Positions 330 to 8,630 of a stretch of 64,000 bases of DNA are shown one piece after another (within the stretch, counting starts at the first letter, position 1; each line of letters starts with the position of its first letter). Location: NCBI GenBank assembly GCA_038087875.1, contig CM075988.1, positions 19,842,001 through 19,906,000 of the forward strand, read 5' to 3'. The notes under the pieces are model-generated. The model saw only the letters and a list, made by a program, of their open reading frames with translations. It had not been told where the DNA came from and made no database searches. The translations under genes were made by a program, and so were the position numbers. The DNA is from Malacoraja senta (lineage: Eukaryota).

Positions 330-1630
330 CAGCTCAAGAAAATGTAGGTTAAGACAGACTGAGAAGTTAATAATGGAAAATGGAGAAAAAGTAGAGAATT
401 CAAAATAATTATTTAGAATTAGACTTCATGTAGGAGATACTAAAAACAATCCAATGCTAACAGATAATCGAGGGGTCATAGCGTGATACAGTGTGGAAAC
501 AGACCCTTCAGCCCAACCTGTCAGACATGTCTCAGCTACATTAGTCTCACCTGCCTGCCTTTGACCCATATCCCTCCAAACCTGTCCTATCCATGTAAGG
601 ATATCCATGTAAGGTTTAAGGAGAAAGAAACTCAAACAAATACAGCCAAAGCAAAAAAGAGGCTCAATTGGGCAATTATAAAGATAGGTTAGTAAGTTTG
701 ATGAAGACATTTGAAATGAAGATAGGTTGAAGTACACAAAAATTGATGGATTTGCAGACAGTGAAGAAGGCAGTCAAAGGATATACAGCAGGTCAATTAC
801 CATTACGGGCAGAGAAATGGCAGATGAAGTTTAATCTAGGCAAGTGTGAGGTGGAGCACTTTGCGTGGTCAAATGCAAATCAGTGGAATAACCCTTAGAT
901 GTATAGAGGGTCCAAGTCCATAACTCCCACAAGTAGCAATATGAGTGGATAGAGTGGGAAAAAAGATGCAGCATATGCTTGCCTTCATCTGGTGGGGAAA
1001 GAGTTTAAGAATCAGCAAGTCATTTTGAAACTTTATGGAACATTGGTTAGGCTGTATTTGGAGTGCAATTCTGTTTGCCCCATGATAGGAAGGATATGGA
1101 GGCTTTGGGGAAGGTGCAGAAGAGTTTTATCAGAATGCTGTCTGGATTAGATGGTAATAGCTATGAGAAGTTGGACAAACTTGTGTTATTTCCTCGTGGA
1201 GTGTCTCAGGCTGAGGGGAGAATGGGAAGTAGTTTATAAAATTGTGAGAGGAATAGAGGTATAGGGTAGACAGTCAGAACTTTTATCGCAGGATGGAAAT
1301 GTCAAATACTAGAAGGTTATAAGATTATGAGGTGTGAGGAATAAAGGAGATGTGCACGGGAATAGTGATGGGAATGTGCATCCAAGGGTGGCAGTGGAAA
1401 CAGATATGATAGTGGCGTTTAAGAATATTTAGATAAGCACACGGATATGCAAGAAATGGAGGGATATAGATTGCATACATGCCGAAGGGATTAGTTTAAT
1501 TTGACATTGTGTTTGGCATAGACACTGTGAGCCAAAAAGGATATGGTCCAAATGCAGACAAATGGGGCTAGCCCAATATGCCAACATGCTTCACATGAGC
1601 AAGGTGGGCCGAAGGGCCTGCTCTGTGCTG
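330..1630 (+). mobile_element. Degraded CR1 LINE (RT to 3' end) with nested CR1-type tails
   Basis: FAD/KCEV/gccttcat motifs colinear with the young CR1 at 44894-47981; tail gggccgaagggcctg at about 1606. Confidence 0.75.
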
Positions 1631-2659
1631 AACAGTTCTGGCTGCATTTGAACATGTTCATAATTGACTGGAAAGCAAGCCGATGCTATAAACAACGCAA
1701 GGGGAATGTAAATCGTTTTTTTCTTTCTTTCCATTGCATAAAAACCTCTCTCACTCTACACATACCCTTTCCATAAACATATAGGTCACACATTTAAAAA
1801 ATACAAGCACATATTACAGGAAAGCAAATCCAAACCTGTTGATTTCAGACAGCTAACGTTCAAATTCTGCCAATGTTTTAACTATCTGTGTAAATAAGAA
1901 TGTCACTGCCAGAATTCATAATTGACAATTTGGTAATAAACTGCCAACATCGAATGGACTGAATAAATTAATGATAAATGTATATTACAGGGAAATTATT
2001 ATTCCAGTGTTTGACTACAAATCTTCTTTACAGCTGTATAATTTTCCCGTTGATTACCATTTGCAGACATCACAGGTGGCAGGCTTCAGTAGACAAGGCG
2101 TTTTGTCTAACAGCCGGTATTTCTAATCAATGGTGATGTATGACCATGACATGATGTCACGGTATTTAGCCAACCATGAAATGATGGCAGACTTGGCCAT
2201 CAAAGCTGCCGGAAGCTGGAGTGAGCATCATTTTTTTAAATGACTGATTATTAAACATTTCTGCAATCAGCTTCAGGGAAGAGGAGAGACATGGGAACAG
2301 ATGAAGGGAGAGTGTGAAATATCCAAAGTACACAGAGCACAAAATTGGTGCGGAAAATCTGCTCAATGCTGGACCAGGAAGCAGAGGGACAATGCAAGAG
2401 TTGGCTCTGTTGGTGAGGTTCTCTTCGACAGGAAGAAGATACAAAAGCAGATTATTGACCAAATGGACATCACCTCCAGCAGTAGCTGTGCAGAGGGAAT
2501 TGAGCATCCTTAGATCAGAAACACCCGCAAATGGCAGCAGGGAATGAGGAAGAGGACCAAGGGAGAGAGCAGAAAACAGCAGGAAATCTGGCTAAGACTC
2601 CACTGGATGTTGGCAGGGCACACCAGGGGCACTCTTGCACGGAATTGATCTCGGAGACA

Positions 2660-3115
2660 AATGAGTTAATGTCTGAGGAGCGTTTGAATGCTCTGGGATT
2701 GTGAACACTGGTGCTGAGAAGAATTAGTGGAATCTCATTGAAACCTACCGGATAACGATAGGCTTAGATAGAGTGGATGCAGAAAGGACATATCCAGTAA
2801 TGGGAGAGTCTAGGACCAGAGGGCAGACCCTCAGAATAAAAGGATAAACTTTCAGAATGGACATGGGGAGGGATTTCTTTGGCCAGAGAGTGGTGAATCT
2901 GTGGAATTTATTGCCACAGGCAGTTATGCAGGCCAAAGCATTAGGTATTTTTAAAGCAGAGATTGATAGATTCTTGATTAGGAAGGGCATCAAAGGCTAA
3001 GGGGAGAAGGCGGGAGAGTAGAGTTGAGAGGGAGAAATAGATCAGTATTTTCGAATGGTGGAATTGACAATGGCTTGAATGACCTAATTCTGCTCCCATG
3101 TCTGATGGTCTTCAG
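2660..3115 (+). mobile_element. CR1 LINE 3' fragment
   Basis: gagagtggtgaatctgtggaatt...gcatcaaagg...aattctgctcc, homologous to the 3' end of the young CR1. Confidence 0.85.
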
Positions 3116-3191
3116 GTGTAGAGAGAGCTATCTTAGCATTCGAAACAGATTAATGCTGTGGGTGGATTCAGTGCTATTGTAGTGGATGAAA

Positions 3192-5100
3192 TAGCAATGT
3201 TACAAAATTTTGAGATTTAAAAAATCAAGTCTGCAATTTATCCCATCAGATACAGCATAAAAAGAAGTTTAATTTGATACCTAATTCACTTTCATATCTT
3301 CAGTATTAAAAAAGTTATGGCATTTTCATACTCGGAAACCAGCATCTTGTTCCCTATTGCTTTTCCATTGACTTAACACAAAAGCTGTGATCGAGGACAG
3401 TCAAAAGCCCATAACTTTCTTAAATATTAAGAGAACTGAATGACATTTTCAGTTATTATAGATTGAAGCATTCTGAAACAAATATGAAACATCTTACTTG
3501 GATGACCTGAAATTAAAGCATATAATTAGTTAGTTACCTAATTGTAGCTAATTACAAAATTGACCGTTGTGATGGAAATAGTAATAAACACCCAGACTGC
3601 CTTGAAAATTCAAAAATGTGATATTCTCAAGATCAGAACTTTAATATTATTGTATTATATGCTGTAAGTCCGTAACAGATAGGTAAATAAATTACAATTT
3701 CTAACAATAGACCTTTATGGAGAAGATCAGTTGCAACATTGGCATATCATTGGCTGGTACATTGGCATATCATAATCAGTAGCATCATCGTACTCCTCAG
3801 ATTGTAACCAATAAGCAACTCTGTACACCTTGTTTTTCCTCAAGTTTTCAATTTTGGCATTGTAAACTACAAGTTTTTGCTCTTCAAACCACACATGACA
3901 TGTCTTTCTGCCCACTCCTTTCCCATTAAGAATGTCCTGTAGATCATCACATTTGGAGTAGTCCAAATTCGGATAATCTCATGCGAATGCTGTCTAAATC
4001 CGTCTCTTTTGCTGGGCATTTGGATTGACAATTTTGCATTTCTTCTTCGGAGACATCTGTTTACAATGTAAAGGGGAAAAAAACACTGAACAGCTTTAAC
4101 AGAAACAAGTTATTATTTGCAGTTTTAGACAAAAGGTTGAAATGATAAAGTTAACGCTAAAACAAATAGTAAATACCCCACAGAAAAATCATATTCATCA
4201 GTTTCATCAAATCAATTAAATTCATCTAATCAATTAAATTCATCTAAATTCAATTACTAGATCTAAACATCTATCCATTTCTAAGAAAAGGCTAATTTTT
4301 TTAAATAGCCTAAGTATCCAAATAACAAACTAATCCCATTCACACAAGAATTCACAAATATAAAAAGATTTTTAAATCTCACTGTCATGAACTTACATGC
4401 CAAATGGAAGGAATTTAATGTTTAATTCCCATAAGTTAATCTAGAAACATCCACTCTCAATATAATCAAAATTATTATTTTTTGCACAATACATCTGACT
4501 AAAACTGTTGTGGATGTCTAGTATAAAAATATTGATTATGGATAGACAATAACACAAAATATAGATGATTTAGATGCTCTTATGACATGATTGTCCAAAA
4601 AAAAAGAGAATTTTAATCATCTTGCAAGTGGGTGTTTCTGGAATGCGATCGATTGGAACGTTGCCATTGCCGTGAATTTTAACCCCATATTGGCAGGTAA
4701 AGACATGGCCGAATCGTTTGGGGACTAAATAACATTTTCGCATCGTAAAAGTAAACTAAAGCCACCCCGCTGAAGCAAGATTATATGTGAAATACACGAC
4801 TTACCCTTTGTTTTGTCCTGATATTATGATCCGTGACGTTGAAGGCGTTGAGGGCGTTCAAAGTCGCCTTTTACTTTAATCCAACTATTAAATTGTCCAA
4901 AGATTTTTTTTTAAAATAAACGGGAACGGAAGTCCGATCGATTTTTTTTCATCGACTAGCAGCCCGAGGAAATCCCTCTCTGACAAGCAATACAAACATG
5001 CATTTTAATCCCGCCCCCCCCTCAAAAGCTCCGGAGTCGCGCACACAGACCGTGGCAGATCTGCAGTGCCGCTTAGTAGGTAGGTTTTGTAACATCGCTA
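3192..5100 (-). mobile_element. Non-autonomous TIR DNA transposon, 1.9 kb, superfamily unassigned
   Basis: 16-bp TIRs TAGCAATGTTACAAAA (3192) and TTTTGTAACATCGCTA (ends 5100), 15/16 match; flanks GATGAAA / GATGAAG (possible 7-bp TSD); CpG-rich right end. Confidence 0.85.
3690..4056 (-). pseudogene. Decayed small gene inside the TIR element: basic N-terminus plus Tudor/Spin-Ssty-like domain
   Basis: cag|ATG at 4056 gives MSPKKKCKIVNPNAQQKRRI*TAFA*DYPNL, in frame with ORF 3727-3966 (VGRKTCHVWFEEQKLVVYNAKIE...YRVAYW...DYDMPMYQ); stops TAG and TGA are single C>T changes from CAG and CGA; a duplication of ATGATATGCCAATG shifts the frame before ATDLLHKGLL. Confidence 0.65.
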
Positions 5101-5259
5101 GATGAAGGGGTTTTTTTTAGGAAGGGTTGACACAGTTAGCCCTTTACAAATTGGAATTTAGGAGAATGACAGTTGATTTTGTTATAACATTAGAATGGTG
5201 AAGCACTAAAATCTGCACTCTGGTTATATTTCTCTTTACATTAACTTGTGTATGGAGAT

Positions 5260-5465
5260 ATAAGAAACTGAAGAGGCTGGAACCTTGAGGCAAATATATA
5301 GTGCTGCAAGATCTCAGAGGTTCAGGCAGCATCTGTGGAGGCAACGGACAGATGTTGTTTTGGGTCAGGACCCTTCAGAAAAATGGGTCCCAACCCAAAC
5401 TATTGTCTTTCCATCCCCCCCCCCCCCCAGATGCTGCCTGACCCACTGAGTTCCTCCAGCTGTTT
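5260..5465. mobile_element. Penelope-like fold-back unit (two inverted terminal halves)
   Basis: caggcagcatctgtggagg...gggtcaggacccttcag mirrored by gggtcccaacccaaac...agatgctgcctgacccactgag. Confidence 0.7.
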
Positions 5466-6489
5466 GTACTTGTGTACGACTTGATTGTAATGTATAGCAT
5501 GATCTGACTGGATAACATTTAAAACAAGTTTTTTCATTGTATCTTCAGTGCACGAATAATAATAATCCAATATCAATACCAAAGATATGGTGGGTTAAGT
5601 ACTGAGAGGAGAATTCCACACCTGAAAGAATTCCGAATGAGCTGTTTGCTTTCCGAATCAGAAACTGCCTGTTTAAGATGGAGAAAGGTTTAGAGGTACA
5701 TGGGCTAAACACAGGAAAATGGGACTAGACGAGATGGGGCATTTTGGTCGGCATGGACTAGTTGGGCCGAATGACTCCATGCTGTATGACTCTAATTTCT
5801 ACTGTCTGTGGCAAAGAAATCTTTGAAATTCACTACCCAGCAAGCTGTGATGGCTGAATTATTAAATATAATCAAGTCCAAGATCAATGTTTGGACTGTA
5901 GAGGAATCAAGGGTTGTGGGGATCAGAGAGGAAAGGAGGTGAAGATTCGATCAGCCGTGATCTTATTGAACGAGGGAGAAAGTTCAAATAATCATACGTC
6001 CCACCCTTCCCCCTATGTTTTCCTGTTCAACACACCCTTTCCCCCAGTGCTATTCGAGTGGCACTTTTTACTCCTTCTCGTCATTTTCCATGGTTTTTAA
6101 GTCAATTTTGGCAGTTAAGTGGGTTAAACAAACCATTTCACACATCATTAATTTCACTCTTCAGTGGTGGGCCTGCTATTGATCAAACTAAATGAAGGAA
6201 AAAGCACCAACATTGATAATATTTTTTGTGCTATAAACCAAATACCATTCATCCCTGTATCTGATACTCAGGTCTAGTGTTGATCAATTTCAGAAAATGA
6301 TTATGTGCTAACATTCATGCTATTTAGTCACAGTAGAATACTCTCTGTAGCTTCAATTTACCATGCTATCAATCATCAAACTATTTCTGACCGCAGCTAA
6401 CTCCAAGTACATAGACCACAAATATAGTGTCCTATCAAAAATAGAATCTGTATGTGTTTCTTTAGTTATTATTTACCTGACAATTAAGA

Positions 6490-7979: not shown

Positions 7980-8630
7980 GTAGAGAATGTTGAGGCTTCA
8001 AGTTCTTGGGTGTAGACATCAACAACAATTTGGTCCAATTACTGGCCAAGAAATCACGCCAATTACTCTACTTCATTTGATGGCAGAGCAATTTCAGCAT
8101 GTTTCCAATGACTCTTACCAATTTCCACAGATCCATCATAGAAAGCATCCTACCGGGATTCACCACAGCTTTGTACTGCAACAACTCTGTCCAAGGTCGC
8201 AAAAAATTGTGGACGCAGTCCAAACCATTACATAGACCAGTCTTCCATCCCACCCACTAATCAATCCATCTACACTTCACAGTGCCTTGGGAACGCTGCC
8301 AACATAGTCAAGGACAAGTCATACCAGAGTCATTCAATTTTCTCCCCTCTCCCATCGGGCAGATGGTACAAAAACTAGAAAGCACATACCGTTAAATTCA
8401 AGTATAGATTTTCCCCTGCTTTTATCAGATACTTGCTTGGGATGAATTATGCAATCTTCCAAACTACCTTGTTGCTACCCTCACACTTTTTCTGTAAATG
8501 AATCACCATATTCTGCTCGCTGTTTTCTCTTTTGCACTACCTGACATATAATCATACCATACACGAGTTGCCTGGCTCGCATACAAAAACAGTTTTTCAC
8601 TGTACCTTGACACACGTGACAATAATAAAC
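7980..8630 (+). mobile_element. Degraded Rex1/Babar LINE 3' part
   Basis: ttcaagttcttggg, catagaaagcatcct, ccctctcccatcgggcaga homologous to Rex1 at 43250-43800; same 3' tail. Confidence 0.75.

Follow-up and report, generated by a model that had tools for sequence, protein, structure and literature searches.

An internally deleted DNA transposon of Malacoraja senta, probably derived from a 4.27-kb element whose transposase ends in a predicted Spindlin-like Tudor domain

A multicopy 1.9-kb element with 7-bp target-site duplications

The minus strand of the window (the whole 64,000-nucleotide stretch of Malacoraja senta DNA that was analysed) carries a 1,909-bp copy of a DNA transposon bounded by terminal inverted repeats (TIRs). 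Its features are collected in Table 1. The outer architecture given in the original prediction, which had been made from this one sequence, holds up well. The 16-nt TIRs are 94% complementary, and the termini of the short element read TAG..CTA. The near-duplicated 7-bp flanks are a true target-site duplication (TSD), with one mismatch in the window copy, and the right end described as CpG-rich has a CpG observed/expected ratio of 1.23 at 4600-5100, against 0.33 for the window. The DNA transposon family that had been supposed is indeed multicopy, non-autonomous and flanked by 7-bp TSDs. By eye, the flanks at 2800-3115 and 5290-5475 look like what is left of old LINE 3′ ends and like a hairpin of SINE type with 51-nt inverted arms.

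Table 1. Features of the short element and its flanks, in window coordinates.
Feature	Position	Strand	Basis
Non-autonomous DNA transposon, probably an internal-deletion derivative of a 4.27-kb autonomous element	3192..5100	-	genome copies and comparison with the autonomous element
TSD, left copy, GATGAAA, 7 bp	3185..3191	+	flank comparison
TSD, right copy, GATGAAG, 7 bp, one mismatch	5101..5107	+	flank comparison
TIR at the 3′ end (in transposase sense), its start identical to the TIR of the autonomous element	3192..3207	+	
TIR at the 5′ end	5085..5100	-	
CpG-rich 5′ subterminal region, 67% identical to the young autonomous element	4600..5084	-	
Putative 5′-UTR intron (GTAAGT ... CAG) stemming from the transposase gene	4057..4804	-	donor/acceptor motifs
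Transposase codons 1-15, MSPKKKCKIVNPNAQ (MSPKKKCKIVNPKAQ in the autonomous copy)	4012..4056	-	
Deletion junction: autonomous nt 871-3465 (codons 16-880) absent, 2 other bases between, frame shifted	4009..4012	-	
What remains of codons 881-978 and the stop of the transposase, disrupted in the window copy	3701..4009	-	
Codons for transposase residues ~910-978, predicted to form a Spindlin-like Tudor barrel	3701..3921	-	
3′ UTR and subterminal region, within a stretch 92% identical to the young autonomous element	3208..3700	-	

A search of the species' own 1.94-Gb genome, in which the best 40 of 5,388 candidates were scored, returned at least 48 matches, 29 of which are copies of 1.8-1.9 kb, at 87-100% identity. 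Three genome searches were merged into 66 distinct places, 31 of them with both ends intact, over which TSD lengths were compiled as the original prediction had recommended: they are 7 bp family-wide. An exact 7-bp duplication is found in 24/31 places, a duplication with one mismatch in four and none in three; exact duplications of 3, 4, 6, 8 or 9 bp occur in 0/31 places and one of 5 bp in a single place. The duplicated sequence tends to have C at position 1 (17/28) and G at position 7 (18/28). In the window copy a 17-nt inverted pair lies at 4462-4478/4523-4539, where some copies carry an extra inverted stretch.

An autonomous relative encodes a 978-residue transposase

The original prediction proposed a search for longer elements with the same TIRs, and an element sharing the 3′ TIR does exist. 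With L019, a natural open short copy, as the query, we found two longer proteins, P0001 and P0002, that end in the tail sequence; P0001 reads like a transposase core. Against the own genome P0001 gave 94 matches, many within open frames of 978 aa, and 16 genomic regions around them were retrieved for comparison. The relative found in this way is a 4.27-kb autonomous element with a transposase ORF. Over 3.5-4.27 kb, nine full-length copies share 98.9-99.95% identity with L091; the 3′ TIR is that of the window element, and a 7-bp TSD is present in 6/6 copies checked, an exact 8-bp one in 0/6. The same acceptor-like site precedes the start of the 978-aa protein, MSPKKKCKIVNPKAQ, whose other end is the Tudor-like stretch; an outside homolog of 64% identity, P0268, has a similar start.

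Positions 4440-4012 of the window match nt 491-870 of the autonomous element (77% identity) and positions 4009-3192 match nt 3466-4273 (92%), so that codons 16-880 have been deleted and the frame shifted. The Tudor-like tail corresponds to residues 881-978 of the single 978-aa ORF, which disposes of the earlier suggestion that it is the second gene of a two-gene element: what had been read as a separate ORF is in substance the C-terminal tail of a transposase, the family's own. Exact matches to the deletion junction number 260 genome-wide, and those to the matching stretch of the young autonomous form number 33.

Compared with six longer copies sampled, the short family is about 66-86% identical in its 5′ part and 87-95% in its 3′ part. 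For a direct parent, a pattern based on the short family's codon 13 had 0 genome matches. Given this divergent 5′ part and the lack of parent matches, the short family may be of mosaic origin or stem from a lost subfamily.

Copies L091-L100 (e.g. G000:C9:13701931-13706203 and L093:3932-8204) form a very young 4.27-kb family with perfect 7-bp TSDs, possibly still active. The older autonomous copies L104-L106 contain an internal inverted repeat of ~130-300 bp in the intron region (window about 4438-4523).

The start and tail frames of the short element do not join

The peptide motifs singled out earlier, PKKKCK and VGRKTCHVW...YNAKI...YRVAYW, are present in the sequence. The reading frame in which they had been placed, some 115 aa long and supposedly interrupted by no more than two C>T stops and a short duplication, does not stand: the frames do not join and neither stop is a C>T change. 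The first stop, TAG at 3996-3994, is an off-frame reading of GAT TTA GAC and is family-wide. The second, TGA at 3981-3979, is created by a private 1-bp insertion near 3981, absent from 29/29 other aligned copies and missing from 31/41 RNA reads; it is this insertion alone that brings PKKKCK in frame with the Tudor-like part. The window copy has two further lesions: 16 bp are duplicated at ~3750-3735, and 5 bp are deleted at ~3712. As for KRR, which had been counted as part of an NLS-like start, it consists of the junction and off-frame sequence outside the transposase, and reads KRL in most copies.

We compared 41 copies picked by DNA similarity (44 distinct ones, minus 3 in which the tail was not covered). 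The frame of the first ATG (MSPKKKCK) ends at 20 aa in 35 of them and reaches the end of the Tudor-like domain in one. In many copies the frame that contains the Tudor-like part runs open for ~115 codons between stops. Another ATG, 17 nt downstream of the first and in frame with the tail, is kept in 38/41 copies and gives 108 aa; it is the off-frame sequence of transposase codons 6-7. From the exon-1 stretch no ATG leads into the tail frame in 38/40 copies, for which reason a start in exon 1 via a phase-1 splice was rejected. The stand-alone accessory gene originally predicted, with its NLS, was rejected likewise, since the start and Tudor frames do not join, the first ATG gives the 20 aa just described and the tail is the C-terminus of the transposase. 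In one short copy, L166, a secondary small deletion restores the first ATG to the tail frame (112 aa); this frame-restoring deletion is private to L166 in the sample, L157 being partly alike.

The original prediction also called for a check of purifying selection among copies, and none emerged. In the 41 short copies the tail frame has undergone 46 synonymous, 170 missense and 12 nonsense changes; computed against the 3′ non-coding mutation spectrum, omega is 1.26 (p 0.93 for a synonymous excess). Indels occur in the tail at 2.76/kb and in 3′ non-coding DNA at 2.43/kb, with 25 frameshifting indels in the 41 copies. The tail frame is open in 19-20/41 copies, compared with 33% expected (p 0.055), and its substitution rate, 0.0195, is below that of the 3′ non-coding DNA, 0.026; one off-frame control gave an omega of 0.69 (p 0.012). 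Post-insertion changes are neutral even in working transposon genes, which makes this selection test weak, so that the anatomy of the frames weighs more. Between autonomous subfamilies omega is 0.27 for the tail (5 synonymous, 6 missense changes), 0.25 for the core and 1.03 for the N-terminal third; against L102, another old copy, alone, it is 0.56 for the tail and 0.82 for its Tudor part, from few changes.

A putative 5′-UTR intron and RNA from the family

The splice motifs pointed out in the original prediction recur across the family: GTAAGT at 4804 is found in 30/40 copies (the donor GT being retained in 37/40) and CAG before 4056 in 38/40. Because donor-like and acceptor-like sites stand in the autonomous copies too, the sequence between them is most simply read as a putative 5′-UTR intron of the transposase. 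Putative it stays, since the joint 4805^4056 is absent among 15 of the 30 joints listed (four RNA runs, with reads from many copies) and reads cover the supposed intron and the exon to equal depth (one polyA library). The family drew 2,108 reads from one polyA library, of which about 6% was sampled; they are biased to the sense strand and 51 of them are at least 99% identical. The CpG-rich region upstream likely comprises the promoter and non-coding first exon of the transposase.

Some reads and contigs skip positions 3556-4246, 3944-4282 and 4440-4610 of the window (gaps of 689, 337 and 169 bases, none bounded by GT-AG). Next to an autonomous copy there are, besides, other short relatives (L094:1561-3895 and 8261-8517). 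To judge from these joints and relatives, further deletion derivatives of the same lineage exist.

The transposase tail is predicted to fold as a Spindlin-like Tudor barrel

The Spin/Ssty repeat of spindlins follows roughly the pattern VG-x-R-I-x-H-x-W...W/Y-x-G-x-V...Y-x-I-x-Y...L-x-x-D and reads methylated histones. A fold of this Spindlin/Tudor kind had been proposed from the motifs, and structural modelling bears it out. The last 109 residues of the transposase, modelled with an 82-sequence alignment, reached a pLDDT of 96.8. The best matches of the model, of moderate strength, are the Tudor domain of RDM15 (VIA-align Z 7.2, rmsd 1.8, 57 residues aligned) and, tied with it, Spindlin-4 (Z 7.2, rmsd 2.5, 65 residues aligned); the TraI and BAHCC1 barrels come next at Z 6.3-6.7, and no row reaches Z 8. 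With Foldseek, Spindlin1 fills 7 of the first 10 rows, none at E < 0.001.

In sequence searches, the best PDB matches of the tail profile (hmmsearch) are spindlins, at E 0.018-0.7. The profile aligns over the whole second repeat of the own genome's spindlin, the Spindlin-type end YQL..D...DL included (pairwise E 0.0011, probability 20%). No match to PF02513 (Spin/Ssty) exceeds the Pfam cut-off; 2 of the 82 members match, with a best E of 0.041. The domain is present in a single copy and not as three tandem repeats. For the 115-aa frame itself, Pfam gave no family and the best Atlas score, 0.82, was uninformative. Altogether, the model predicts that the tail folds as a Spindlin-like Tudor barrel.

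Four positions of the tail are aromatic in most rows of the alignment: W920 (93%), Y929 (99%), Y946 (96%) and F/Y959 (87%); at Y953, too, the aromatic character is conserved. These cage-like aromatics and nearby acidic residues are kept across about 80 sequences at about 40% identity. By sequence register they match F141, W151, Y170 and Y177, the fourth less surely, which form the aromatic cage of Spindlin1 according to the accessible text of PMC3967050. We rate the chance that the tail binds a methylated residue of any kind at somewhat over one half.

A likely hAT-like transposase with a wide distribution

Among homologs, D429, D506, C531xxH534 and E784 are at least 95% conserved and R608 is nearly invariant; D429, D506, C531, H534 and E784 are the presumed catalytic residues. 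The order D-D-CxxH-R-E we take to be the hAT signature, the CxxH type presumably occurring in MULE, P and Kolobok as well. Neither the 978-aa protein nor any of 51 homologs, searched at E up to 0.05, has a match to Pfam hAT, BED, DUF4371 or Dimer_Tnp_hAT. A PDB search with the whole protein and its alignment returned coiled-coil noise alone, hhalign against three hAT-type proteins of the own genome gave nothing significant, and a single-sequence model of the whole protein was unusable (pLDDT 38). In the Atlas, the 30 nearest clusters carry no Pfam family; the nearest named ones are of hAT/DUF659 types (0.77-0.78), and we treat them as leads.

Several superfamilies were considered. Canonical hAT (Ac/Buster/Tip) was set aside on account of an 8-bp TSD in 0/31 places and no Dimer_Tnp_hAT or BED match. 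Academ, IS3EU and 8-bp hAT elements were rejected given no 3-, 4-, 6- or 8-bp duplications among the 31 places. The P superfamily, whose termini are CA..TG, is disfavoured by the TAG..CTA ends and the lack of a THAP or Tnp_P match, although the 7-bp TSD fits the 7-8 bp of that superfamily. We take hATw to be an animal hAT group with a 7-bp TSD, which the element's 7 bp would fit; membership in hATw is a lead.

In the accessible parts of the sources, the TSD of IS3EU is 6 bp (PMC12730594), that of 1360 and Galileo, both of the P superfamily, is 7 bp (PMC3698922), and hAT families with a 7-bp TSD exist in Repbase (PMC4455052, PMC12730594). A definition of hATw was not met in the literature covered: the accessible portions of PMC12905397, PMC13465017 and PMC8721813 use class names or treat hATx. 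Judged from its sequence, the 978-residue protein is likely a hAT-like DDE transposase, not a canonical hAT.

A library search gave 189 relatives at E up to 0.001. The tail was found in 41 of 45 new homologs of at least 850 aa and not in the other 4, a count that is biased because the search profile itself included the tail. Of 277 matches to the domain, 257 end no more than 15 aa from the C-terminus. Named homologs are known from Hydra, Patella, Littorina, Priapulus, Asterias, Capitella, Caligus, hagfish and bony fishes; with few exceptions their annotation is 'uncharacterized' or 'hypothetical', and those of Hydra are multicopy. In two gene models a homolog is joined to other domains, SAM/TIR in P0347 (Oryzias latipes 'SARM1' model) and BTB in P0295 (Nymphon 'bric-a-brac 2' model); most likely these models swallowed a neighbouring insertion. 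With an 826-aa Atlas cluster the transposase core scores 0.92; the few members known of that cluster belong mostly to the Basidiomycota, and the lineage may reach fungi.

Interpretation and alternatives

We regard the 1.9-kb element, with a probability of about 0.9, as an internally deleted, non-autonomous copy of the 4.27-kb transposon whose single protein ends in a predicted Spindlin-type Tudor domain. A single deletion took out codons 16-880 and left the start fused, in the wrong frame, to the last 98 codons; the shortened element has spread to at least 260 places with 7-bp TSDs. The short copy presumably kept both ends, the promoter region and the 5′-UTR intron, and would be moved in trans by the transposase of its autonomous relatives. 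Its leftover tail would be a neutrally decaying passenger, normally untranslated because the first ATG ends after 20 codons.

It is very improbable that the short family instead makes a free Tudor mini-protein of 108 aa, for which leaky scanning would give access to the second ATG and which would compete with or help the transposase, a weakened form of the accessory gene originally predicted. An omega of 1.26 and, across the 41 copies, 12 nonsense changes along with 25 frameshifting indels speak against such a product, as do the upstream ATG that ends at 20 aa, the missing splice joint among 15 of the 30 listed with intron depth equal to exon depth, and the origin of the second ATG as mere off-frame sequence of transposase codons 6-7; in its favour are the retention of that ATG in 38/41 copies with a frame open in 19-20/41, slightly above neutral (p 0.055), the sense-biased RNA in one polyA library, and L166, where ATG and tail are back in frame. 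Another proposal, that the parent is a CxxH-type DDE transposase outside hAT (from a MULE-, P- or Kolobok-like clade, or from a superfamily that has no name yet), we find unlikely. It would account for the want of Pfam hAT, BED and DUF4371 matches in the protein and its 51 homologs, for the non-significant hhalign comparison with three canonical hAT-type proteins, for a TSD of 7 bp and not 8, and for the 30 nearest Atlas clusters without a Pfam family. Yet the short TIRs, the TAG ends, the one ORF and what we take to be the hAT order D-D-CxxH-R-E all lean towards hAT, as do the nearest named Atlas clusters, of hAT/DUF659 types (0.77-0.78, leads). To these can be added the 7-bp-TSD hAT families in Repbase (accessible parts of PMC4455052 and PMC12730594) and a RepeatMasker class hAT-hATw, annotated in Hydra, where homologs are multicopy.

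The nature of the tail's ligand is less clear-cut. That the Tudor/SH3-like barrel has DNA or a protein partner as its ligand, and not a methyl mark, is a real possibility, against which we lean. The structural matches are moderate (Z 7.2), with barrels of TraI (SH3-like and not a reader), CarD, UvrD-type proteins and TnsB at Z 5-6.7; the spacing to the fourth aromatic is 13 residues compared with 7 in Spindlin1; and the loop between strands 2 and 3 (KLRKNK) is basic, whereas the accessible part of PMC3967050 describes an acidic surface for Spindlin. On the other hand, spindlins come first in the sequence-profile search and occupy the upper Foldseek rows, the alignment takes in the Spindlin-type end YQL..D...DL, and four cage-like aromatics with acidic neighbours persist in about 80 sequences at about 40% identity.

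On the preferred reading of the tail as a methyl-mark reader, in an intact transposase it would bind methylated lysine or arginine, most likely of a histone tail, via its aromatic cage. Such binding could tether the transpososome to a chromatin state, by analogy with the chromodomains of some Gypsy integrases. That a widespread animal cut-and-paste lineage uses a Spindlin-type methyl-mark reader to choose insertion sites by histone state, with the origin of the Spin/Ssty fold possibly tied to it, is a tentative idea that we hold to be rather doubtful.

The window element itself is an ordinary deletion derivative; the notable part is the parent's DDE core together with its Spindlin-like tail. 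Chromatin-reader domains that aim integration are already known for Gypsy integrases. If the tail reads a histone mark, target choice would be explained in a lineage found across cnidarians, molluscs, echinoderms, priapulids, arthropods and fishes, and a natural chromatin-guided transposase would be on offer. The near-identical young intact copies in this genome provide a ready test sequence for the reader role.

Comparison with known systems

Internal-deletion derivatives of cut-and-paste elements, of which Ds of Ac is the textbook case, likewise keep the ends and subterminal DNA and lose the transposase core, and here too the short form outnumbers the autonomous one (260 vs 33 exact matches). 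Nothing is different in principle; in the present family the 5′ half is more diverged than the 3′ half. With hATw as we take it to be, the element has in common TAG termini, short TIRs, a 7-bp TSD and a single ORF with D-D-CxxH-E, along with homologs of the 978-aa protein that are multicopy in Hydra and other aquatic animals. In contrast to canonical hAT, the element has no BED finger, Dimer_Tnp_hAT or 8-bp TSD, and adds a C-terminal Tudor-like domain. hAT7 of rust fungi shares its 7-bp TSD; according to the accessible text of PMC12730594 hAT7 clusters with Ac/Tam3, whereas the 978-aa protein has no detectable likeness to the canonical hAT proteins tested.

Like the Spin/Ssty repeat of Spindlin, as presented in the accessible part of PMC3967050, the predicted Tudor barrel of the tail has a VG-x-x-x-x-H-x-W start and a YQL..D...DL end. 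Unlike Spindlin, it occurs as one copy and not three, is fused to a transposase and falls below the Pfam cut-off; its reader role is predicted. In the literature searched, no DNA transposase with a Spindlin-like domain came to light; Repbase Reports and subscription journals, outside that search, may mention the domain. Gypsy-10_Ec32 was called the first reported transposable element with a Tudor domain in 2025, in the accessible portion of PMC12477816. In Gypsy-10_Ec32 and in the chromodomain Gypsy integrases treated in the same portion, a domain of the chromatin-reader type likewise stands at the C-terminus of the integrating protein; those elements are LTR retrotransposons, whereas the present one, with its Spindlin-like domain, is a DNA transposon with TIRs.
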